From sequence record SRR22947725_362: a stretch of DNA of 53,847 bases; one strand, written 5' to 3'. Position numbers and translations under genes: made by a program. The notes under the pieces were generated by a model. That model did not search any database and had not been told where the DNA came from. It was given only the letters and a program-made list of their open reading frames with translations. This document shows positions 10,577 to 49,250 of this stretch, piece by piece. Every line of letters starts with the position of its first letter. Positions within the stretch are counted from its first letter, which is position 1.

Positions 10577-12307
10577 ATGAAACTATCAAAGCTAATTGGC
10601 AATAGAATTAAAGAAACACCTAAGGATGCCCAGAGCGCCAGTCACATTTTTTTAATTAGAGGTGGATACATCCGCCCATTGTCGACCGGTATTTATACCC
10701 TTTTACCTCTAGCTAAAAGGATTATAACTAAAATAGAGAGGCTTATTCGCCAAGAAATGGACGCGATTGATGGTCAGGAAATCTCAATGCCAGTCGTTAA
10801 TCCAGCAGAAATTTGGCAAGAAAGTGGTCGTTACCAATCTGTTGACCAGACTTTATTAAAATTTAAAGATAGAAACAATAAAGACATGGTTTTGGCCATG
10901 ACTCATGAAGAAGCCGTCTGCCACTTAGCGCGAACTGAAATCACCTCTTATAAACAAATGCCCAGCATGCTTTATCAGATTCAGACAAAATACCGCGACG
11001 AGGCCAGAGCTAGAGCCGGTTTGATTAGAGTACGTGAGTTTACCATGAAGGACGCTTATTCTTTTCATGAAAGCGATGACTGCTTAGCGAGTTATTATGA
11101 AAAAGCTCATCAAGCTTATGAAAACATTTTTAGACGCATCGGGATGAAAGATGTTTTATCCATTGAAGCTGATAATGGCATGATTGGCGGTTCAGTCTCG
11201 CATGAGTTTATGGCCATTTCTGAAATCGGTGAAGATACCATTATTGTTTCACCTTGCCGTACATATCAGGCCAATAGAGAAATCGCCACCTCGCCTTTTG
11301 TTCTGAAAAATGAAGATTTACTTGAATTGGAAAAAGTTCATACACCGGACACTGAGTCAATTGAAGATGTCGCCAAACTTTTGGGGACTGAAACGTCAGA
11401 GACCAGTAAAGCGGTACTTTATGCTTCTGATGACATCGATGAATTGATTTTTGTTCTTATCCGCGGCGATATCGAAGTTAATGAAGTGAAAGTCAAAAAT
11501 TTCTTAAAAATTCACTCTCTCTACCCAGCCGATGACGAAAAGATTAAAGCTTGTGGCGCAGTTCCGGGTTATGCCTCTGCGATGGGAGTTGATTTAGAAA
11601 AGGTTAAGCTATTGGTTGACCCAACGGTTCAAGGCTCCTCGAATTTAGTGGCTGGTGCAAATGAAGCTGGTTACCATTATAAGAATTTCAACTTCACTAG
11701 AGACTGTGGTGATGTTGGTCGTGTTGTCGATGTGGCAACTGTCCGAGCCGGTGACCCTTGTCCTCAAACAGGTGCTCCGCTTGAAGAATTGCGCGGTATT
11801 GAAGTTGGAAATATTTTCCAGTTGGGCACTAAGTATTCTGAAGCGATGAATGTTAAATACCTTGACCAAAATGGTAAAGCGCAAACGGCTATTATGGGTT
11901 GTTACGGTATAGGAGTCGGTCGTGCCTTAGCTTCTGTTTGTGAACAGTCTCATGATAAATATGGGCCAGTTTGGCCTCTAGCAATAGCTCCTTATCACCT
12001 TCACATCATTGGTTTAAATGCCAAGAAAGCTCCAGAAGTTAAGGAAAAGACGAACGAAATTTATGAAAAGCTGACGGCGGCAGGAATTGAAGTTCTCTAT
12101 GACGATCGCGATGCCAAGGCAGGTTTTGCTTTTAACGATGCAGATCTTATTGGTATTCCTTATAGAATCGTTGTTTCACCAAAGACTTTGGATCAAAATT
12201 CTATTGAGTTTAAGACTCGTGATGGTAGCACCAAAGAAATGATTGATGTCGATACGGCCATTGATTATCTAAAAGATTTAATTTCGGCTAAGTTAGCAGA
12301 AGTTTAA
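10577..12307 (+). CDS. proS: Proline--tRNA ligase (bacterial type with editing insertion)
   Basis: MTHEE, YQIQTKYRDE, REFTMKDAYSF, GIEVGNIFQLG, MGCYGIGVGR, anticodon-binding domain. Confidence 0.98.
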   Translation: MKLSKLIGNRIKETPKDAQSASHIFLIRGGYIRPLSTGIYTLLPLAKRIITKIERLIRQEMDAIDGQEISMPVVNPAEIWQESGRYQSVDQTLLKFKDRNNKDMVLAMTHEEAVCHLARTEITSYKQMPSMLYQIQTKYRDEARARAGLIRVREFTMKDAYSFHESDDCLASYYEKAHQAYENIFRRIGMKDVLSIEADNGMIGGSVSHEFMAISEIGEDTIIVSPCRTYQANREIATSPFVLKNEDLLELEKVHTPDTESIEDVAKLLGTETSETSKAVLYASDDIDELIFVLIRGDIEVNEVKVKNFLKIHSLYPADDEKIKACGAVPGYASAMGVDLEKVKLLVDPTVQGSSNLVAGANEAGYHYKNFNFTRDCGDVGRVVDVATVRAGDPCPQTGAPLEELRGIEVGNIFQLGTKYSEAMNVKYLDQNGKAQTAIMGCYGIGVGRALASVCEQSHDKYGPVWPLAIAPYHLHIIGLNAKKAPEVKEKTNEIYEKLTAAGIEVLYDDRDAKAGFAFNDADLIGIPYRIVVSPKTLDQNSIEFKTRDGSTKEMIDVDTAIDYLKDLISAKLAEV

Positions 12308-12617: not shown

Positions 12618-12648
12618 TAAGAAATGATTTTTGAGTAACTGTTTCTGC

Positions 12649-14025
12649 ATGAGTAAAATTCTTCTTATAGATGATGATCGCATTTCATTGACCTTGATCT
12701 CCCGCATGGTTGAATCAATGGGCTATGATTATGTCGCTGTTCAAGATCCGCGTCAGGGTTTGGAGCTTCTAAAGCAAGAGAAGTTCACAGTCGTTGTGAC
12801 CGACTTGATGATGCCTGAAATTGACGGTTTGGAAATCTTAAAAAGATCCCTTCGTTTTGATAAAACTCTTCAGGTTATCTTAGTAACGGCAGCCAGTGAG
12901 TTAGGTCCTGCTATTGAAGCCATGCGCGCCGGAGCTGCCGACTACATACAAAAGCCATTGCGTTTAGAGCAAATTCAAGCGGCCTTAGTCCGTGTTTTCG
13001 AAAAGAGAAAATTGGTTGATGAAAACCGCCAGTTAAAGGCCAGGCTCGACCAGTATAAAAATCAGTACGATATCATTGGCCGTAGTGACGCCATGCAGAA
13101 AATCTTTCAGACCCTTGAGCGCGTGGCAAATACGAATGTCAGTGTTCTTATCCACGGAGAGAGTGGAACAGGTAAGGAGATGATCGCCAAGGCCATCCAT
13201 AAAATGAGTCAGAGAAGTCACCGGCCGTTTGTTGGCGTCGATTGTGTCGCTATTCCAAAAGAGTTATTTGAAAGTGAACTATTTGGCTATGAAAAAGGTG
13301 CTTTTACCGGAGCTCAGGGCCAGAGAAAGGGCCTATTGGCAGAAGCGAATACAGGTACGTTCTTTTTTGATGAAGTAACAGAAATTGATTATGCCGTTCA
13401 AGCTAAGCTTTTGCGGGTGCTTCAAGAGAGAAACTACCGGCGTGTTGGGGGGCGAGAGCTTCAAGATCTAGATATTCGAGTGTTGGCAGCCACTCGTCGA
13501 GATCCATTAGCTGCCGTTGAGCAAGGGCTTTTCCGAGAAGACCTTTATTATCGTTTAAATGTTCTTCCGATTGAATTGCCCCCACTGCGGGAACGCCGTG
13601 AAGATATCCCGTTAATGGTCGAAACTTTTATTAATGAGTATCGAGTTGAATACAATACAGAAATGGATATCGAACCGGAAGCTTTGCTAAAAATACAGAC
13701 TTATAATTGGCCAGGCAATGTCCGAGAGTTGAAGAATATGATCACTCGTCTGTGCGTTATGGCAACCAATTACCGAATAACACCGAACGATCTTCCAGAT
13801 GACATTCGCGATTATAATCGCTCCGATTTCAATTTCGAATGGCTCAGTAATCTGAAATTTAAAGATGCCAAAGAAAAATGGCTCGAAGGCTTTGAAGTCA
13901 AATACATGGAGTTCGTTCTTAAGCGCTACAATGGCAACCTCTCAGAAGCAGCACGTAACAGTGGCGTCAACCGCAAAACCTTTCAGCGCCTCATGAACAA
14001 GCACGGCCTTAAAGCAGAAAATTAA
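12649..14025 (+). CDS. Sigma54-dependent NtrC/AtoC-family response regulator
   Basis: Receiver (LIDDD, TDLMMP, YIQKP), AAA+ domain (GESGTGKE, GAFTGA, FFDEV, FREDLYYRL, WPGNVRELKN), Fis-type HTH; ATG 12649 preferred. Confidence 0.93.
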   Translation: MSKILLIDDDRISLTLISRMVESMGYDYVAVQDPRQGLELLKQEKFTVVVTDLMMPEIDGLEILKRSLRFDKTLQVILVTAASELGPAIEAMRAGAADYIQKPLRLEQIQAALVRVFEKRKLVDENRQLKARLDQYKNQYDIIGRSDAMQKIFQTLERVANTNVSVLIHGESGTGKEMIAKAIHKMSQRSHRPFVGVDCVAIPKELFESELFGYEKGAFTGAQGQRKGLLAEANTGTFFFDEVTEIDYAVQAKLLRVLQERNYRRVGGRELQDLDIRVLAATRRDPLAAVEQGLFREDLYYRLNVLPIELPPLRERREDIPLMVETFINEYRVEYNTEMDIEPEALLKIQTYNWPGNVRELKNMITRLCVMATNYRITPNDLPDDIRDYNRSDFNFEWLSNLKFKDAKEKWLEGFEVKYMEFVLKRYNGNLSEAARNSGVNRKTFQRLMNKHGLKAEN

Positions 14026-39137: not shown

Positions 39138-40426
39138 ATGAAAAAAAGTAACTGTTTAATAATTCTTCTTGCCCTTTCAGTTATTGCGAATACATATCTT
39201 TTCGTAATACCGATAGATTCAGTAGAGATAAAAGAAACAGACAGTACGAACTTTATTCTTAGCCCAAGTAAAAGTGTTTATCTCGGTGTTAAAGATCACA
39301 CTAATGATACGGATAGGCAAATTGCTATTCATGCCAATCAAGGACAAGTCGTCGAGATTCATGTACGTGAAGCAAGAGAGGATGAAGAAATTCAGACATT
39401 CACTTTGGATGAATTCCTCAAGCAGGTTCTTGGTCACAAAAACCAAACGGTGAAACAATCCAGTGCAAAGTTTAAAGCTATAGAACCAGAATCACCGAGT
39501 CGCTTAAATTTTTTTTGGCAGAATGCAAATATCCCGAGCTTAGAACTACTTCGATCAAATGAAAAAATCGATGGTGTGATTAAGAACTCGAAGTCTGAAA
39601 TGGAAAAATTTCTAAAGCTGCAGAATTGGGTTCGTAGTCAATGGGAACCAGGCTCCCCAGATCCTTATCCTGCTTGGAATGCAAATCAGATATTATCGAT
39701 GATTCGAAGTGGTAAAACGGGTGGCTTCTATGGACAATATTCACAAGTATTAGTGCAAGCACTACAAAGCTTGGGTTATAAGGCTCGTTACCTCTGGCTA
39801 AAAAATCACTTTGCCTTAGAAGTATTCTGGAATGAAGGTGGCAAATGGATTGGCTTGACCCTCTTTACAGTGCAGTTTATATGAAAGATGGTAAAAACCT
39901 TAATGCTTATGAGGTTTATTCATCAATGGATAAACTAGACCAAATTTCGATCATTAATTCAAAAAACAAACAGGAAATACTTGGAACAGAAAAGGAGAAG
40001 ATAGTTAAGCATTACTCTGAAATTACTTATGCTTTGAAAGCAGATCATTTAAGTGAAAATAAAAGTGGCCTCTCTTATGTTGCTAATTATTGGCAGCATT
40101 CGGCGGTATTTGTTGATCAAAATTTACCGAAGAGAACCTTTCATGGAAAGACGGCTGTTTTAACAGATCGTTTGCATGACCTTTATTTTATTGTTGATGA
40201 AGTTAAAGCAAGAATTCAAAGTTTAAATAGTAAGACTCTAACTCTGATTTTGTCGAGTACTTTCTCGATTCAAGACTTTGAAATGTCAATTAATGATAGC
40301 CCTTTTCGTAAAGTAAAGGAGATAGTTTCGATTCCCTTTAGGAATTCCAAATTGAATATTTTAGTTCGTGGTAAGAATATGGTGGGCGTTGTCGGACCAG
40401 TGCGAAAATATGAATTTACACCTTAA
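39138..40426 (+). pseudogene. Transglutaminase-like membrane-anchored protein, paralog 1; frameshifted and catalytic Cys replaced by Tyr
   Basis: ORFs 39138-39884 and 39845-40426 together align to paralog 2; 1-nt deletion near 39855; TAT at 39729-39731 where paralog 2 has TGT. Confidence 0.8.
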
Positions 40427-40432
40427 TTCTCA

Positions 40433-41164
40433 ATGAAATTCTCAATTGTTATTCCAGCTTATAATGAAGACGAACTGATTGGGGCGACGATTGATAATTT
40501 AGTCAGTGCCTTGAAACATATTGTTGAATATGAAATCATTGTAATAGATGACTATTCAATAGATAAAACTTTTCAAGTAGTGGAAAATAAACAAAAAAAG
40601 AATGATAATTTATTTATCATTAAAAATAATTATTCTCAAGGGTTTGGTGGAGCGGTTAAGAGTGGACTAGATCACTTTTCGGGAGATGCCGTAGCCATTT
40701 ATATGGCCGATGCCAGCGATAGCCCTAATGATCTTATTCGCTATTTTGAAGAAATAGAAAATGGCGCCGAATGTGTTTTTGGCTCTCGATTTATTAAAGA
40801 CAGTAAAGTTATTGATTATCCGAAGCATAAACTTTTTCTTAATCGTTTTGTTAATTTCGTTATTAAAATGGTTTTTCGTCATAAGTATAACGATACGACA
40901 AATGCTTTTAAATGTTATCGCCGAGAAGTAATTGAGGGGTGTCGCCCCTTTATTTCAAGGCACTTTAATTTTACTGTGGAGCTTCCTTTAAAAGCCTTTA
41001 TTCGTGGCTATAAATTCAAGGTAGTTCCTATAAGTTGGACTAATCGGACCGTTGGGGTGTCCAAATTGAAACTTAAAGAAATGGGTTCTAGGTATTTTTT
41101 TATGTTTGTTTATTGTCTTATGGAAAAATGGTTGACTGGTCAGGATTATAAAAGAGATGATTAA
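40433..41164 (+). CDS. GT2 polyprenol-phosphate glycosyltransferase (DPM1/GtrB-like)
   Basis: IVIPAYNE, VIDDYS, GFGGAV, MADASD, FGSRF, DTTNAFKCYR, GVSK. Confidence 0.85.
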   Translation: MKFSIVIPAYNEDELIGATIDNLVSALKHIVEYEIIVIDDYSIDKTFQVVENKQKKNDNLFIIKNNYSQGFGGAVKSGLDHFSGDAVAIYMADASDSPNDLIRYFEEIENGAECVFGSRFIKDSKVIDYPKHKLFLNRFVNFVIKMVFRHKYNDTTNAFKCYRREVIEGCRPFISRHFNFTVELPLKAFIRGYKFKVVPISWTNRTVGVSKLKLKEMGSRYFFMFVYCLMEKWLTGQDYKRDD

Positions 41165-41179: not shown

Positions 41180-42460
41180 ATGAAATTAAAACCGTTGGTT
41201 TTTTTAGCAGTAATACTGTTACTTGTGAATGCCTTTTTATTATTTAATCGCAAAGAGGCTGAAGTTATGCCGACCTCTGAGAGTACGCGGTTTATAATGA
41301 CAGAAGGAAAAAGTGTTTATTTAGGAGTTAAGGATCATGCCTCAGCCAGTGACCGGCAGATAGCCATTCAGGCTTCTCCTAATGAAGTTGTCGAGATTCA
41401 GGTCAGAAAAGCTGGCGACGAAGAAGTAGAAGAGACTTATAATTTAAATGAGTTTTTAGGATAAATTATTGGCCATAAGAATCAAGAGGCGAAGAGTACG
41501 GCTCAATTTAAGGCAATGCAGCCAGAGTCTGTTTCTCGCTTTAATTTTCAATTTCAATCTTATAATCATCCAGAACTCATCTCGTTGAAAAAGAGAGAAA
41601 GTCTTGCTCGAGTAATAGAAGGTGGAGACTCGGAGTTAGATAAGTTTGTTCTACTTCAGAATTGGGTGAGGCAACAATGGCAGGTGGGAACCCCCAATCC
41701 TTATCCTCAGTGGAATGCAAACCAAATTTTAAATATGATTCGCTCAGGCCAAACTGGAGGCTTTTGTGGACAGTATTCTCAGGTATTAGTTCAGGCTTTC
41801 TTGAGTCTGGGTTATAAAGCGCGGTATTTATGGTTAAAAAATCACTTTGCACTAGAGGTTTTCTGGAATGAAGGCGGTAGGTGGCTTAGCGTTGACCCAC
41901 TTTATAATGTTTTATTTAAGAAAGGTGAGAATTACCTAAGTGCTTATGAGGTTTATCTAGCTTTTCATAATCAAGAAAATATTTCAGTAATAAATACAGT
42001 ATCTAATTCATTAATTGAAGGTGTTGAGAAAGATAATATTTTACAAACTTATTCTGAAATTATTTTTGATTTGAAAGCAGACCACCTTGGGGCGAGAGAG
42101 AGTGGACTTTACTTTGTCGAGAATTCTTGGCAAACATCGGTGTTCATTCTGGATGAATTTTCGAAAAATAGGACTTTTAACGGTAAGAACCCAGCAATCA
42201 CAGATCGCGTCAGAGATCTATATTTTTTGATAGATGATGTAAAGCTGAAAGCGCTAAAATTTGATGAGCAAAGTTTGGTTCTTGAATTAATCACAGATTC
42301 TCATTTGAGCTCATATCAAATGTCTATAAATAATTCACCTTTTAAGGATATCCCTAAACGTGTCAGTTTACCGGTTAAGGGCAAGATGGATATTCGCGTT
42401 AGAGCTAAGAATAGGGCAGGTATTTGGGGTCCGATACGCCAATATAGCTTTACGCCTTAG
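41180..42460 (+). pseudogene. Transglutaminase-like membrane-anchored protein, paralog 2; in-frame stop
   Basis: ORFs 41180-41464 and 41516-42460 are in the same frame; TAA at 41462-41464 aligns to Gln of paralog 1; triad C (GFCGQY), H (NHFALE), D (VDP) intact. Confidence 0.8.
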
Positions 42461-42461
42461 G

Positions 42462-44015
42462 TTATCTCGGAACAATGATGTTTCGTTGGGCTCTTGAGCG
42501 CATGCTTTTGCTACCCCAGAATTGGTAGAAGTCATTTTCGAATGATGTCATATCTATGCCGTCGAAAGCTTTTTCATAGACAGTTTGTATATCATCGCCA
42601 TTAACGATTGATTTAATTGATTTAGCGAGGACTTCAGAGTATCGCTTATCTTTATACATGGGCACGGCTTTTCGTAAGTAATACATAATCGCCCAGGCAA
42701 CAGGGTAGTTGAGGTCTGGGTTGGCATAGAAGGCTTGGTGGCCCATCACGAGGTGTTTCTTTATATTAATGCCTTTACGCTTCATTAAAGGCGCTAAGAC
42801 TCTTAGGTGCATGGGGTCTTCGATGATGGTAACTTTTGAACCCAATTTTTTGATTGAGGCAAATAAGTCAGCATGGCCTTCATTAAACCATGGTGGGCTA
42901 TCTTTTTGCTCTAGAGCATAGTAGATATATTGATGAAATGCTTCGTGCCTTAAAGTGCCCATTTGCTGTTTTTCGTCTCTAGTGTAAGACGCTACAGCCA
43001 GTTCCTTCCTGCTGGACATCCAAACTCCAGCTGACCATTCGGGGGCCCCCGTATATTTCAGGTATTCTTCTTTTGTATTAGGTATGGTGATGATACTTAC
43101 CGCTTTAATTTCAGAGACTGGTGGGATGAATTTCTCGTATACTTTACGGATGAACTCTACCTGCTCCTGAACTTTTTTAGCAAAGGACCTTTTTTTAGTC
43201 GGCATGTTCGATTTGAGAACATAGTTATTGGTTTGGGCGAGCCACCAACCTTCGGTATTGAGCACCTGCTTTTTTACGGCATCAATGGTTTGTTGATACT
43301 CAGGGCTGACTTTACTTGATGGTTTAAATTTACTACTTTGGAAAGTCGACTTCTTGGCTTCTTTGGCTTTTTCAATTTTTATGTAGCGCATGAAGCCTTG
43401 CATGGCTCTTTCAGCATCTTTTTGTTCGCCACCACGCATTTTAAGACTGAGGTAGTAGAAGCGTTTATCGGCAGTGGTAATTAAGAAATCGAATGAATCT
43501 GCGGGCTGATTAAAATTAACAAATTTCATATCAAGAGAAAAATGTAGCTTCGGGTAACGGTCTTCTAATTTACATGATTTACCAGTGACAAACTTTAGCC
43601 ATTTGAGAATAATAGCTTCATCATATTCACTGATCTGTTTCTTATTAGAATCGTAATGTTTTTTTTGAACATACTCATTTCGAATAGTTTCGAGGTTATC
43701 AGGAATGAGATTATTGATTTTGTAAAAATTGAGTGTGACCAGAGTGTTTTTGTAGGTGACTATTTTATTATCACTTTCCCAAAGTTCTTGTAATACATAG
43801 GTTTCTAATTGGCTGACCTCTGTGCCCCGAGTTAGAATAAAGCGGGAGGTTTCGAGTGGCTTAATTTGTTCAGCCTTCATGTCTCGGAAGGCTTTGAAAG
43901 AGACTCCTTCTGTATTGAGGGTGGTTGCTGAGCGCTCTAATGAATATTCTTTTGGGGCTCTAGCGAATAGGCTTATTGATAAAATGAGAGAGATTAATAA
44001 AACGTTTTTAATCAT
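42462..44015 (-). CDS. Exported protein with gluzincin-like metallopeptidase domain (DUF1570/peptidase MA-like)
   Basis: Signal peptide; LRHEAFHQ then PPWFNEGHA; YPVAWA. Confidence 0.7.
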   Translation of the reverse strand: MIKNVLLISLILSISLFARAPKEYSLERSATTLNTEGVSFKAFRDMKAEQIKPLETSRFILTRGTEVSQLETYVLQELWESDNKIVTYKNTLVTLNFYKINNLIPDNLETIRNEYVQKKHYDSNKKQISEYDEAIILKWLKFVTGKSCKLEDRYPKLHFSLDMKFVNFNQPADSFDFLITTADKRFYYLSLKMRGGEQKDAERAMQGFMRYIKIEKAKEAKKSTFQSSKFKPSSKVSPEYQQTIDAVKKQVLNTEGWWLAQTNNYVLKSNMPTKKRSFAKKVQEQVEFIRKVYEKFIPPVSEIKAVSIITIPNTKEEYLKYTGAPEWSAGVWMSSRKELAVASYTRDEKQQMGTLRHEAFHQYIYYALEQKDSPPWFNEGHADLFASIKKLGSKVTIIEDPMHLRVLAPLMKRKGINIKKHLVMGHQAFYANPDLNYPVAWAIMYYLRKAVPMYKDKRYSEVLAKSIKSIVNGDDIQTVYEKAFDGIDMTSFENDFYQFWGSKSMRSRAQRNIIVPR

Positions 44016-44034
44016 GTAATTTGCCCTGAGTTAA

Positions 44035-45582
44035 TTATTCGGTAAAAGCCTGCTCGATAACATTGTCACCATTGGTGATAAGAAAGTTATTTTCTACAGG
44101 AACCTTAAGTCGGTCATTGTGCTGTAGGTATTTGAAAAGATGGTCGCGAACAGATGTTGTCGACTTCCAAACTGGCCGATGCTTTTTAAGCATATCATAA
44201 CCGAGTGCACCACCAGCTCTGAAATGGTAGAAGGCGACTTTGAAGCGATCTTTATCTTGGAGATCTTCACCATTATGCTTAAGCTCTACAATTCTATGAC
44301 CTACGGGCTTAGAAATATCTATTTTGTAGTAAATCCCAGACCAGATGTCGTAATCATAAATTTTAGATGAGACTAAGCACCTTCCTTCTTCAGTAAGGGT
44401 AAAGAACTCCGCCGTTCTCTCTAAAGCTAATTTGATATTTTCGCCAGTAATATTGAGAATGTGAATGTAGTTATCAGGCAGAAGGTTAAGGATTTTTTTG
44501 CGTTTTACTGGGCCTTTTCCCCAGCCACTCATATCCCAAAAGCTGGCGACTGTTATGTCGCACTTAGAGTGATCTCTTAAGACATCGTGAATTAAACTAC
44601 TCATACGGCTCGGTTTAATAAGAGGGTCACTCGGATAATCGGGAATGAATGAATGTCTTGATTTGGCGACGACTTCTGTGAGCCAAGCGAAGGTGCTGTC
44701 ATGAGCTTTGGCAGTAACCGCCATGACTTCTTCATCCAGTCCACAGTTTTTTAGCGGGAGGACTTCAGAGTTTATTTGTGGCGATTCTTGACTAAAGTCT
44801 ACATCGACTTTACCTAGAAATAAGCCATTGCAGCCGGCTTGTATGGTGTGAACTCCATTAACAGTTTGATTGGCGGCACAACCATGAGTATGACCGGTGA
44901 TAAGTAAATCAATTTCCGGGAATTTTTCGGCAATATCTGATTTCAACTCTCCAATTTCTTCAGCACTCTGCCAGTAGGAAAGTCCACTTTCATAACCTCC
45001 GTGGTAGCATACGGTGATGAAGTCGGCGCCTAATTCCTTAACTTCGGCAATCTTCTCTTCGAGAACATCCAGTGGTGAAACGATCTTTAGATCTTTAATG
45101 AGGTCTTTATAAGCCAGAGTTGCTGTTTCTTCAGTGGTCACACCAATAAACGCCAGCTTTTTCCCAAAGGTAGTTTCGTGCATATAATAGCTATGGCCGA
45201 AAGCAGCTTTTTTACTGCTGTTCTTGAAAATATTGGCGCCAAGCCATGGGAACTGAGACTGCTCTATCACTTTATCGAGATATTTTCGGCCGTAATCAAA
45301 TTCGTGATTTCCTATGACCGAAAAGCGGCAATCCATAGCGTCAAGTGCAGTGACAATGGGAGCGGATAAGCGTAGATCTTCAGCGCAACGAATTGAGAGT
45401 AGTGAACCTGAAATGAGATCGCCATTATCAAAGTAAATGACTTCATCCTCTTGCTCGCGGATCTCTTTTAGCTTTGTGGCTGCATGAGCGATACCATGGT
45501 TTGAACCCCTATTATTAAAAAAGGAGTCTCCCGTAACATACCCATGTACATCTGTGCTGTAAACTAAACTAATTTTACCCAT
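44035..45582 (-). CDS. Metallophosphoesterase/5'-nucleotidase (CpdB/UshA-like), no signal peptide
   Basis: TDVHG, DNGD, GNHEFD, YHGG, GHTH plus C-terminal nucleotidase domain (GIYYKID-GHRI). Confidence 0.88.
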   Translation of the reverse strand: MGKISLVYSTDVHGYVTGDSFFNNRGSNHGIAHAATKLKEIREQEDEVIYFDNGDLISGSLLSIRCAEDLRLSAPIVTALDAMDCRFSVIGNHEFDYGRKYLDKVIEQSQFPWLGANIFKNSSKKAAFGHSYYMHETTFGKKLAFIGVTTEETATLAYKDLIKDLKIVSPLDVLEEKIAEVKELGADFITVCYHGGYESGLSYWQSAEEIGELKSDIAEKFPEIDLLITGHTHGCAANQTVNGVHTIQAGCNGLFLGKVDVDFSQESPQINSEVLPLKNCGLDEEVMAVTAKAHDSTFAWLTEVVAKSRHSFIPDYPSDPLIKPSRMSSLIHDVLRDHSKCDITVASFWDMSGWGKGPVKRKKILNLLPDNYIHILNITGENIKLALERTAEFFTLTEEGRCLVSSKIYDYDIWSGIYYKIDISKPVGHRIVELKHNGEDLQDKDRFKVAFYHFRAGGALGYDMLKKHRPVWKSTTSVRDHLFKYLQHNDRLKVPVENNFLITNGDNVIEQAFTE

Positions 45583-45640
45583 AAATCCATCATATTCTAT
45601 AGACCGTAAAGGCCCATTTTACCCTCTTAGCAGTGGAGAT

Positions 45641-46405
45641 TCAAGAATTGAGCCACTTATTATTGAAATCAACGGCATCTTTATAGGTAATTCCGGACCC
45701 GCCAAAGATGTCAAGAGCACTACCTATAGTGAGGTCAACCTTGTTATCGCTGCTTTCAGTAATTTTGATCAAGTCTTCAATTGAGTTGGCGCCACCAGCA
45801 TAAGTTGTTGGTATTGGCGAGTTCTTTAAAAGTTCAACCAAATTCCAATCAATCCCCTGACAGAGACCTTCGACATCGACTGCATGTATAAGGAATTCGT
45901 GACAATACTCTGAGAGCTCTTTTAAAGTCTTTTCGTCGAGTTGGACATCGGTAAATTTCTGCCAACGATCAGTAACGATCCAGTATTTGTTGTCTTTTAT
46001 GCGGCAGCTTAGGTCTAAAACCAGTTTTTCTGGCCCGACTTCCTTAAGGATAGAGTTTAAATTCTTTTCATTCAGTTGACCATCTTTGAAGACGAATGAA
46101 GTGACAATGACAGAGGAAGCACCGGCTTCGAGTAGTTTAGCGGCATTTTCATTAGTAACACCACCACCAATTTGAAGTCCTCCTGGATAGGCTTTAAGAG
46201 CACTCAAAGACGCTTCTTCGTTCCCTTGGCCTAATCGTATTACGTGACCCCCAGTTAATTTATCTTGGCGATATAAGTCGGCATACCAATCGGCGGGCTT
46301 TTCGGAGATGAAATTGGTGGCAGGAGAACTTCCTGAGTCATTCAGCGAGCCGCCGACGATCTGTTTTACTTTGCCATTGTGTAAATCAATACAGGGTCTA
46401 AACAT
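45641..46405 (-). CDS. hisA: ProFAR isomerase, eukaryotic (His6-like) type
   Basis: FRPCIDLHNGKVKQIVGG, GGHVI, LQIGGG, LVLDLSCR, HAVDVEGL, LTIGSALDIFGG. Confidence 0.92.
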   Translation of the reverse strand: MFRPCIDLHNGKVKQIVGGSLNDSGSSPATNFISEKPADWYADLYRQDKLTGGHVIRLGQGNEEASLSALKAYPGGLQIGGGVTNENAAKLLEAGASSVIVTSFVFKDGQLNEKNLNSILKEVGPEKLVLDLSCRIKDNKYWIVTDRWQKFTDVQLDEKTLKELSEYCHEFLIHAVDVEGLCQGIDWNLVELLKNSPIPTTYAGGANSIEDLIKITESSDNKVDLTIGSALDIFGGSGITYKDAVDFNNKWLNS

Positions 46406-46417
46406 GTCTATCCTTAA

Positions 46418-48415
46418 TCAAAAAGTGATATTGAGTTGGGTGTGAGTCGTACTGAGGTCTATTTTGGCTTCATGTAAGGGAAGGAAAATAAAGAATTCCG
46501 TTCCTCTGCCGACCTCACTTTCAACGTGAATCCACCCGGAGTGATTATTAATCGTACCATAAGCCATTGCTAAGCCCATGCCTGTTCCTTTACCCACTTC
46601 TTTAGTCGTGAAGAACGGGTCAAAAATAGTTTTTAGGTTTTCAGGTTTAATGCCGGTGCCATTATCTTTGACGCGAATGCAGGCGAAGTTATCAGGAATG
46701 GTTTCTGGGTTGGCTAGATGCCAGCCCGGAGTGTAGTCATTGGCCATTTCTAGTCTAAAGAAGATTTTGGCATTTTCATGATTTTCTAAGGCATCTCTGG
46801 CATTAATAAGCAGGTTGAGAAGAACTTGCTCTAGTTGGGTTGCATCAGCTTTAACATAAATGGGTTCAGGATGAAGAATGAGTCGTGATTTAAGAGTTTT
46901 TCTCGCCATCGGTTCAAATAAGGCATAAGCAGAGCTTAAAATTTGACTGAGATCGACTTTCTTGACTTCGTACTTTCCTTTTTGAGCAAAACCTAAGAGT
47001 TGGCCCGTTAATGATGATGCTTTGGTGACGGCATTAACTATATTATTTTGTAGAGCTTGTTTCTTTTCTTCATTTGGGTTTTTGGCGATCGAATCGAGAC
47101 TACCTTGAATTGAGTGTAGAAGATTGTTAAAGTCATGGGCAATACCACCGGCTAGACGGCCAACGGACTCGAGTCTTTGGGAGTGAGTCAATTGATGCAT
47201 GAGTTCTTGGCGTTCGTGCGATAGTTTGTGCCTTGCAGTGCTGTTTCTACCTGTGAGAAGAGCAAACTTATCACCCATTTCTACAAGATTTATACTGAAT
47301 TCAATACTGATAATTCTTTCTTTGTAGTCTTTGATGATCCATTCTTGTTGGATCGGTTCGCCTTCATTTTTGACGAGGTTCCACCAGACACGCTCCCATT
47401 TTTTACTTTCATTAGAAACATGCTTGAGGTATTCTGGGATATCGTTTCGGCGGTAAATGACCAAGTCAGTTAAGTATTGCTTTTGAAGCTCGGAGATTTC
47501 CTGACCGAGGTATTTTACGGCAATTTTATTACCATCGAAAATTCGACCATCTTTACCGACGAGCAATAAGATGTCTTGTGAGTTTTCAACAAAGAGTTCA
47601 AAGCGACCTTCCCATTCGTGAGCATAGCTTTGAATGATTTTTTTACGAGTATATGAATTGACGATTGCTTTGAGGAAATCGAGGGGGTTTTTTTCTTGGT
47701 GTTGGGCGAGTTCTTCTTCATTCATATTTAAGTAGAGAGTAGTTAATATACCAAGCCAAACCATGGTGAAAGCTCTGGATAAGTAGAGTCTCTGCATATT
47801 TTCCCAAAAATCATCTGACCATGCATCTGAAATAAGAGAGTATACGAAAGAGTCAACGACTTGGGTCAGTATGAGAGATAAGGTGACCGCCAGAAAGGTT
47901 GAAAAGCGTCTATTGCGGAAAAATTGAAAAGTGACTGGTAGTACAAGGAGGTCAATAATAATCGCTCCCAAGGCAGCGGCCACATCTTGTCGACTGCGAT
48001 TTAAGAGTTGGCTTAGGGCGTTGGCAAACTCTGAGTTTGATAATTCAAAGCCATACCAATCACATTGACCGGCAGTAATATTCGCCAAAAAGAAGAAGGT
48101 TCCACTTACTGCGATAGCACCAATGGTTAGTCTTTGAGCTTCAATAGTTCCATCGAGTGTGTAGACGATGAGCATGGCCATAATAAAGGGGGACAAAAGA
48201 AGGCTGGTTGCGACATTAATAGACAGCCCTGAAATGCCGGTTGAAAGCTGTAAGTCGGCTGAGTTAATGAAGTGGGCAAAAACCAGAAGGGTACCGACGG
48301 CGAGGTAAAATGGCGCTCTACCTATCTGCTTGCGCAATCCATGAAGAACCATAAGCGTCAATGCGGAAAATGTGACTTGTAGGAAGCAAAGTATATAGGC
48401 GTTTAAGTACTCCAT
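46418..48415 (-). CDS. Sensor histidine kinase: polytopic membrane domain, PAS, HisKA, HATPase; no receiver domain
   Basis: [50 protein letters not shown] 48415 preferred since 48493 overlaps mutM. Confidence 0.9.
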
Positions 48416-48422
48416 GAGGTTC

Positions 48423-49250
48423 CTACTTTTGGCATTTTGAACAATAGAAAGTTGAGCGACCGGCGAGAACTTTTTTTCTGATTTCGCTTGCACAGGTCAA
48501 GCAGGGTTCATTTTCTCGTCCATAGACCGCAAGCTCTCGGAAAAAATAACCTTCGCTGCCATCTGGTGTGCTAAAGTCGCTTATAGTTGTTCCGCCTGCA
48601 GCAATAGCTTCAGTAAGGACTTCCTGTATTTTCTGTACAAGAATGGTGAGTTTTTGCGAACTTAATTTTCCAGAGGGTGTGAGTGGTGATATCTTGGCGC
48701 GAAATAGAGCTTCAGAAGCATAAATATTTCCGACTCCAACGACGCAATTATTATCCATTATCAGGTTTTTAATTGGCTTGGTCTTTTTGAGGCAAAACTT
48801 CTTTAGGTATTTCGGGGTGAAATGCTTTTCGAGGGGTTCTGGCCCTAGGTGTTCCAAGCATTCTGGCAATGCGCCTTTAACCGTTAGGGTTACAAGTTTG
48901 ACAATACCAAACCTTCTTGCATCTTCGTAACGCCAGCTGAGATCATCATTTAATAAGAAGTTGACGTGCTCATGCTTTTTTAAAGGTTCACTTTTATCGA
49001 CAATACGAAATTTACCGGTCATACCGAGGTGTAGCAAAAGAGCTTTTTCGCCGGAGAGTTCGGCAATAATATATTTGGCGCGTCTTTTTAAGGAGAGAAT
49101 CTTTCTTGAAGAGGACCCCTTTTTTAGGTAATCGCTATCAATCAAATTGCGTAACTGCGGGTTCTTGACATCGACATCAAGAATAGTTTTTCCAACAAGC
49201 GTTTTTTCTAAAGCTCGGCAGACAGTTTCGACTTCTGGCAGTTCAGGCAT
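48423..49250 (-). CDS. mutM: Formamidopyrimidine-DNA glycosylase
   Basis: MPELPEVET, RRAKY, HLGMTG, GVGNIYASE, C-terminal zinc finger CLTC...CSKC. Confidence 0.97.
   Translation of the reverse strand: MPELPEVETVCRALEKTLVGKTILDVDVKNPQLRNLIDSDYLKKGSSSRKILSLKRRAKYIIAELSGEKALLLHLGMTGKFRIVDKSEPLKKHEHVNFLLNDDLSWRYEDARRFGIVKLVTLTVKGALPECLEHLGPEPLEKHFTPKYLKKFCLKKTKPIKNLIMDNNCVVGVGNIYASEALFRAKISPLTPSGKLSSQKLTILVQKIQEVLTEAIAAGGTTISDFSTPDGSEGYFFRELAVYGRENEPCLTCASEIRKKVLAGRSTFYCSKCQK

Follow-up and report, generated by a model that had tools for sequence, protein, structure and literature searches.

A predicted orphan sensor histidine kinase with a Vut_1/YhhQ-related VUPS membrane domain from a Lentisphaeraceae-like bacterium

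The stretch of DNA analysed here (53,847 nucleotides of sequence record SRR22947725_362, referred to as the window) very probably encodes, in a Lentisphaeraceae-like bacterium, an orphan class I sensor histidine kinase whose input is a VUPS domain (PF20973, "Vitamin uptake-like sensor") with a transporter-derived core that would have been repurposed as a receptor. A first-pass annotation, made from the sequence by eye, had recognized a YhhQ-like membrane sensor in this gene and named no characterised example of the design; the domain was already catalogued by Pfam as PF20973, and this family is present in the precomputed annotation of near-identical kinase orthologues. The window kinase is thus an unremarkable member of a family that is catalogued but uncharacterised, with no difference of kind.

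Gene structure and domain architecture

In the ORF listing, the longest frame of the kinase gene runs from 46418 to 48493 on the minus strand (691 aa with a GTG start), and the frame read from the ATG at 48415 is translated into 665 aa with no internal stops (Table 1). Judging from the sequence, the ATG is the likelier start, because an AGGA stands 5 nt ahead of it, because the GTG start would create an overlap of ~70 nt with the upstream mutM gene, and because 10 of the 12 kinase orthologues (65-98% identity) are 663-667 aa long and align from residue 1. All three peptides quoted by the first-pass annotation were found in this frame, at residues 71-96, 141-157, and 179-192.

According to the Pfam scan, the N-terminal 247 residues alone score 44.2-44.3 bits against VUPS (cut-off 27), and the match spans profile positions 3-206 of 206. 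This part matched no other Pfam family at E<=10, including MASE1-11, 5TMR-LYT, and 7TMR-DISM, although HMMER filters discard most matches above E~0.1, which limits such negatives. The PAS assignment is weak (PAS, E 0.0023 at residues 271-341; PAS_9, E 0.065 at residues 282-375), while HisKA (E 1.1e-5, 25.8 bits) falls slightly below its cut-off of 26.9 and HATPase_c was matched with E 5.3e-21 (75.6 bits). Motifs that we take to be the H, N, G1, F, and G2 boxes were located at residues 426-431 (AHDFNN), 534-542 (NLLINARDA), 584-589 (DNGTGI), 598-605 (FDPFFTTK), and 610-615 (GTGMGL), respectively, so that the H-box and the N/G1/F/G2 boxes of a class I (HisKA) sensor histidine kinase are all found; because these boxes are present, the kinase looks functional from its sequence. 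The succession of PAS, HisKA, and HATPase domains after the membrane part, as read by the first-pass annotation, is borne out by the Pfam scan. In NCBIfam, various kinases were matched over residues ~391-652 (E 1e-51 to 1e-64), all far below the equivalog cut-offs.

Table 1. Features of the kinase gene, its neighbours, and the residues compared with Vut_1. Vut_1 residues are numbered as in the L021 protein, and all those given are invariant in a set of nine sequences from one phylum; VUPS columns refer to 65 aligned members.
Feature	Position	Strand	Remarks
VUPS-PAS-HisKA-HATPase_c sensor histidine kinase gene	46418..48415	(-)	665 aa + stop; stop codon 46418-46420
AGGA ribosome-binding site of kinase	48421..48424	(-)	5 nt before ATG, overlaps mutM stop codon; sequence reading
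Extra N-terminal transmembrane helix	48338..48412	(-)	residues 2-26; model helix, hydrophobic peak 6-24
Six-helix VUPS core, homologous to Vut_1/YhhQ	47696..48337	(-)	residues 27-240
VUPS PF20973 "Vitamin uptake-like sensor"	residues 20-229		Pfam; 40.1 bits whole protein, cut-off 27
PAS domain, predicted cytoplasmic	47291..47605	(-)	residues ~271-375; Pfam PAS and PAS_9, both below cut-offs
HisKA dimerisation/phospho-acceptor domain	46979..47161	(-)	residues 419-479; H-box AHDFNN 426-431
HATPase_c ATP-binding catalytic domain	46472..46846	(-)	residues 524-648; N, G1, F, G2 boxes
mutM (Fapy_DNA_glyco, H2TH, zf-FPG)	48423-49250	(-)	upstream of kinase, 7-nt gap
His_biosynth-family (HisA-like) gene	45641-46405	(-)	12-nt gap after kinase
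Metallophosphoesterase/5'-nucleotidase	44035-45582	(-)	cytoplasmic-looking; N-terminus unlike signal peptide by eye
DUF1570 gene	42462-44015	(-)	third gene downstream of kinase
NtrC-type sigma-54 response regulator (Response_reg, Sigma54_activat, HTH_8)	12631-14025	(+)	
ORF preceding NtrC-type regulator	10577-12307	(+)	576 aa
Vut_1 D56 (9/9)	window L82		VUPS column L in 46/65; lost
Vut_1 E60 (9/9)	window T86		VUPS column I in 30/65; lost
Vut_1 S117, R147, T152, T196, P197 (9/9)	window A148, A176, L181, G222, I223		lost in window protein
Vut_1 G63	window G89		G in 62/65 VUPS; kept
Vut_1 S151	window S180		VUPS S 18/65, A 38/65; kept here
Vut_1 D159	window D188		D in 44/65 VUPS; kept
Vut_1 K188	window R214		R or K in 55/65 VUPS; kept

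Membrane domain and its topology

Seven hydrophobic helices were found in the N-terminal part, in agreement with its earlier description as polytopic. In the AlphaFold2 model of residues 1-245 (pLDDT 94.8, pTM 0.90), the helices span residues 2-26, 34-52, 68-88, 90-119, 128-168, 173-197, and 203-231, and a beta-hairpin at residues 56-67 separates core helices 1 and 2. Neither YhhQ nor the S-components of ECF transporters possess an equivalent of the first helix, and structural matches to S-components begin at model residue ~26. This helix is conserved within the family, with L24 in 55 and H25 in 46 of the 65 aligned members and E at the residue-13 column in 50; the window kinase differs from other VUPS proteins in carrying Q at residue 13 and A at residue 148, where S is the commonest residue.

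The loops at residues 27-33 (three K/R) and 169-172 (two K/R) are K/R-rich and would mark the cytoplasmic side, so an N-out/C-in topology is predicted, with the PAS, HisKA, and ATPase domains inside the cell. This predicted C-in topology agrees with that of YhhQ, for which six helices and a cytoplasmic C-terminus are described in a previous study (PMC5372724). Within the VUPS alignment, conservation exceeding what a mere anchor would need is seen at Y85 and G32 (64/65 each), G89 (62/65), Y228 (61/65), D155 (47/65), and D188 (44/65). The near-invariant set particular to VUPS consists of G32, G41, Y85, Y228, R28, D155, P160, and N168.

Homology to Vut_1/YhhQ and fold comparison

The motif likeness to YhhQ, previously judged by eye, lies beyond chance at the level of the family, but the single protein stays below the thresholds of Vut_1 and TIGR00697. 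In the Pfam scan, the window kinase alone gave no match to PF02592 (Vut_1) at E<=10, and its N-terminal part reached only E 0.24 and 11.2 bits against TIGR00697 "queuosine precursor transporter" (cut-off 50.95). Profile-profile alignment of VUPS with Vut_1 by hhalign, using 10 proteins of related genomes together with E. coli YhhQ, gave a probability of 96.0% and E 4.4e-9 over 157 columns (query 61-227, YhhQ 37-199); a second run against nine Vut_1 proteins gave 92.9% (E 3.8e-7) and a third 93.4%, and identity in the profile alignment is 13-14%. The Vut_1 HMM matches 3 of the 65 aligned VUPS members directly. Among 101 sampled genomes from the phylum of the closest metagenome-assembled genome (MAG), it gave 38 matches, of which 25 are frames of 212-396 aa that stand alone, spread over 23 genomes, and 13 lie inside VUPS genes (13 of 34 VUPS genes), 11 of them above Vut_1's own cut-off.

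At the level of motifs, the third one named by the first-pass annotation (S180..Q185..D188-S189..Y192) is in register with S-T..Q..D-T..F of Vut_1 in the profile alignment. The first one stood in part: G89, A93, and R95 fit G..A.R of Vut_1, but the preceding "FP-F-D-E" is ~2 residues out of register and its D/E are not kept. The first-pass annotation would have given up its reading had residues 1-230 matched a known sensor family showing no likeness to YhhQ; a known sensor family, VUPS, was indeed matched by the N-terminal 247 residues, but VUPS is itself YhhQ-like. YhhQ/Vut_1 proteins (QPTR; PF02592, COG1738, TIGR00697) and VUPS have in common the six-helix core, in which a hairpin follows core helix 1, as well as G89, D188, a basic amino acid at position 214, and the S..Q..D[ST]..aromatic motif. 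Unlike YhhQ-type proteins, which are stand-alone importers of preQ0, preQ1, or queuine and ~220-250 aa long, the VUPS domain of the window is fused to PAS and kinase domains within 665 aa.

Searched by sequence against the PDB, neither E. coli YhhQ nor the VUPS domain retrieved a chain at E<=1, and because there is no solved YhhQ structure, a genuine Vut_1 protein was modelled as a control (pLDDT 78.8). Both models display the same order of secondary structures, including the unusual hairpin, and pick the same S-component chains, and in these models VUPS and Vut_1 both have a fold like that of ECF-transporter S-components. The six-helix bundle of the VUPS model is superposable on solved S-components, with an identity of 5-15% to S-components and solitary relatives (FolT, BioY, PanT, RibU, ThiT, HmpT, CbiM, BtuM) and an rmsd of 3.9-5.6 A. 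S-components transport, whereas the output of the VUPS kinase would be phosphorylation. In a Foldseek search of the PDB, the VUPS model had no match at E<=0.001; the highest-ranked entries were ClC channels, but with a TM score of ~0.19 they are not meaningful as fold relatives.

Because the Pfam name, the profile-profile runs, the Vut_1 HMM matches, and the structure models agree, we conclude that the six-helix core of VUPS is homologous to the Vut_1/YhhQ transporters. The descent of the sensor from this transporter lineage, as proposed by the first-pass annotation, is supported by the VUPS match, the profile-profile runs, the direct Vut_1 HMM hits, and the common S-component-like fold.

Residues lost from the transporter and the ligand question

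The VUPS domain of the window does not carry the full set of invariant polar residues of the Vut_1/YhhQ transporters (Table 1). Since residues invariant in Vut_1 are lost in VUPS, the chemistry of the pocket has, judging by the sequence, presumably changed and transport has probably been lost; since the lost residues include the invariant acidic pair D56/E60, the ligand probably lies outside the substrate set of YhhQ.

Queuosine genes were sought in G001, a Lentisphaeraceae MAG carrying a kinase orthologue of 85% identity. This closest genome has TGT, QueC, and QueF, indicating no evident need for queuosine salvage, and has no stand-alone Vut_1 gene. Likewise, TGT, QueC, and QueF are all present in three other genomes with VUPS (G007, G071, and G024), while G065 combines a VUPS kinase with a genuine YhhQ and has no QueF and only a weak QueC-like match. 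As G065 is the only one of these five genomes that lacks QueF and has YhhQ, YhhQ tracks queuosine salvage across them and VUPS does not. No queuosine gene was found among the 10 ORFs scanned around the kinase in the window. The 7-deazapurine or nucleobase ligand suggested by the first-pass annotation is thus not supported, given the loss of D56/E60, the presence of TGT, QueC, and QueF in G001, and the absence of an adjoining queuosine gene.

Distribution of VUPS and linkage to mcsA-mcsB

A complete HMMER search through 1.84 billion representatives, clustered at 50% identity, yielded 106 VUPS clusters at E<=1e-3, 56 at E<=1e-10, and 15 at E<=1e-30. After exclusion of fragments and weakly covering matches, 64 of the 106 representatives were aligned; 61 of the 65 aligned relatives match VUPS. 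Alignment A2 excludes L023, whose frame has a long and doubtful N-terminal extension. The domains found in the 65 aligned relatives comprise HATPase_c (43), PAS_8 (38), HisKA (37), Guanylate_cyc (7), GGDEF (1), and GAF (1), the PAS models matching 35-38 members, and VUPS-PAS-HisKA-HATPase is the commonest layout. Because one membrane domain is found ahead of histidine kinases, class III cyclases, and a GGDEF domain, VUPS is a portable input module. It occurs once per genome in 34 of the 101 sampled genomes of the phylum, in 27 of them as a frame of 628-785 aa, and is missing from all 14 well-known control genomes. Where a genuine Vut_1 is present (23 genomes), VUPS accompanies it in only 3.

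VUPS also occurs in short proteins, 331-349 aa long (L028:7643-8671 on the minus strand; L030:7902-8951 and L036:7953-8948 on the plus strand). The ~110 residues that follow their membrane domain matched no Pfam family and may represent an undescribed output or partner-binding module.

In Bacillus, mcsA and mcsB are protein arginine kinase stress genes. At 12 of 22 related loci (L029, L031, L034, L037-L043, L046, and L047; e.g., L029:8563-10163 on the minus strand), the VUPS kinase gene comes right after mcsA-mcsB in the same orientation, with tens of bases between genes, mcsA encoding a UVR-motif protein and mcsB an ATP:guanido phosphotransferase of the protein arginine kinase type. These 12 are among 17 loci with the PAS-kinase layout, and their kinases are 35-95% identical to one another. 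The window kinase differs in having mutM upstream; no mcsB was detected by tblastn of the window, the linkage is also absent from locus L001, and in G001 mcsA-mcsB lies elsewhere in the genome, away from the VUPS kinase. The linkage may reflect inherited gene order or a tie to proteotoxic or envelope stress.

Genomic neighbourhood

The three genes downstream of the kinase (42462-46405) share its strand and are spaced by 12-58 nt, and together with the kinase they may form a mixed operon; this tight set of neighbours gives no clear functional hint for the kinase. At L001, mutM is likewise upstream of the kinase, and the contig ends directly after it. Among the 10 ORFs around the kinase, no response regulator adjoins it, and the only one among 20 ORFs scanned (out of 52 in the window) is of the NtrC type and lies 32 kb away. 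The metagenome scan returned no close orthologue of the kinase, only three kinase-core matches at 26-34% identity. Further along the window, two transglutaminase-core proteins (39138-39884 and 41516-42460, both on the plus strand) flank a family-2 glycosyltransferase (40433-41164), and these genes end an apparent long plus-strand polysaccharide gene cluster.

Proposed function and alternative explanations

In the mechanism we favour, the transporter-derived VUPS core would be repurposed as a receptor. A small molecule, or possibly an ion instead, may bind within the membrane, in the pocket where S-components accommodate vitamins, and the polar, intrahelical positions at the residue-13 column (mostly E), D155, and D188 may contribute to this putative site. 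The resulting movement would reach the PAS domain and the kinase via helix 7 and a conserved cluster predicted at the cytoplasmic face (H25, R28, G32, Y85, G89, R95, N168, Y228), and the kinase would in turn phosphorylate a response regulator whose gene lies elsewhere. Three points speak against this mechanism: sensing could in fact be done by the PAS domain, the window protein by itself stays under the Vut_1 and TIGR00697 thresholds, and no response regulator is adjacent to the gene.

It is extremely improbable that the likeness to YhhQ is convergent, or a chance likeness between hydrophobic helices, with VUPS being an unrelated 7-TM domain. The low identity of the profile alignment, the failure of the window protein to match Vut_1 significantly, and the empty Foldseek result at E<=0.001 would fit this explanation, but three profile-profile runs reached 93-96% probability, 11 VUPS genes exceed the curated cut-off of Vut_1, the order of secondary structures is the same including the hairpin, and both models matched the same S-component chains. 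Given its homology to Vut_1/YhhQ, VUPS might be a true transceptor, as the first-pass annotation read it, that imports preQ0, preQ1, queuine, or another vitamin-like compound while the kinase reports the transport cycle. YhhQ-type proteins are described in two studies as working without ECF energising modules and as differing in substrate between species (PMC5372724, PMC11130926), and the near-complementary occurrence of the two families (no stand-alone Vut_1 in G001, VUPS in few Vut_1 genomes) speaks for this reading; this distribution may, however, be mere phylogeny. We regard a true transceptor as very unlikely, as D56, E60, R147, T152, T196, and P197, invariant in Vut_1, are lost, the VUPS genomes G001, G007, G071, and G024 have their own TGT, QueC, and QueF while the QueF-less G065 has a real YhhQ, and the kinase adjoins no queuosine gene.

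A different possibility, which we consider realistic but on the unlikely side, is that VUPS has no diffusible ligand and acts as an anchor or dimerisation module, or reports membrane, envelope, or proteostasis stress, while the cytoplasmic PAS domain does any chemical sensing. A PAS domain does follow the membrane domain in most members, mcsA-mcsB directly precedes the kinase at over half of the related loci, and the acidic pair of the transporter is gone; in view of the mcsAB linkage, VUPS may sense no vitamin at all. Against it stand the strong conservation of intrahelical and cytoplasmic-face residues, the reuse of VUPS before cyclases and GGDEF, which is usual for input domains and not for anchors, and the absence of the linkage in the window and L001. 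More broadly, VUPS kinases could be transceptors for a vitamin-like or nucleobase-like compound, or could provide membrane input to a proteostasis circuit built on McsA-McsB (protein arginine kinase) in Verrucomicrobiota-type bacteria; the circuit is hinted at by the gene order mcsA-mcsB-kinase, conserved at 12 of 22 loci, but we consider this pair of ideas unlikely. If the McsA-McsB idea were true, the Lentisphaeraceae copy in the window would be one uncoupled from the mcsAB operon.

Relation to known systems and implications

CbrA and CrbS are sensor kinases with an input of the sodium/solute symporter fold (~13 helices), and the VUPS kinase follows the same concept, in which a transporter-family domain serves as the membrane input; no Pfam family of the sodium/solute symporter type was matched by the window kinase at E<=10. 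Among the papers listed by a literature search, none contains the phrase "vitamin uptake-like sensor" or PF20973, and we found none reporting ligand, transport, phosphorylation, or other experimental work on any VUPS protein. The HD-GYP preprint that names MASE9-11 does not mention vitamin, Vut, VUPS, or YhhQ, and the word "kinase" is absent from the main texts of the YhhQ papers (PMC5372724 and PMC11130926).

The by-eye motif match of the first-pass annotation was sound, and the design of a transporter turned receptor had already been curated, so that the window adds one more VUPS member and not a new kind. The loss of the acidic pair and the linkage to mcsA-mcsB are concrete leads toward the function of VUPS, and finding a ligand for any VUPS member would in one step provide an annotation for many sensor kinases and cyclases.
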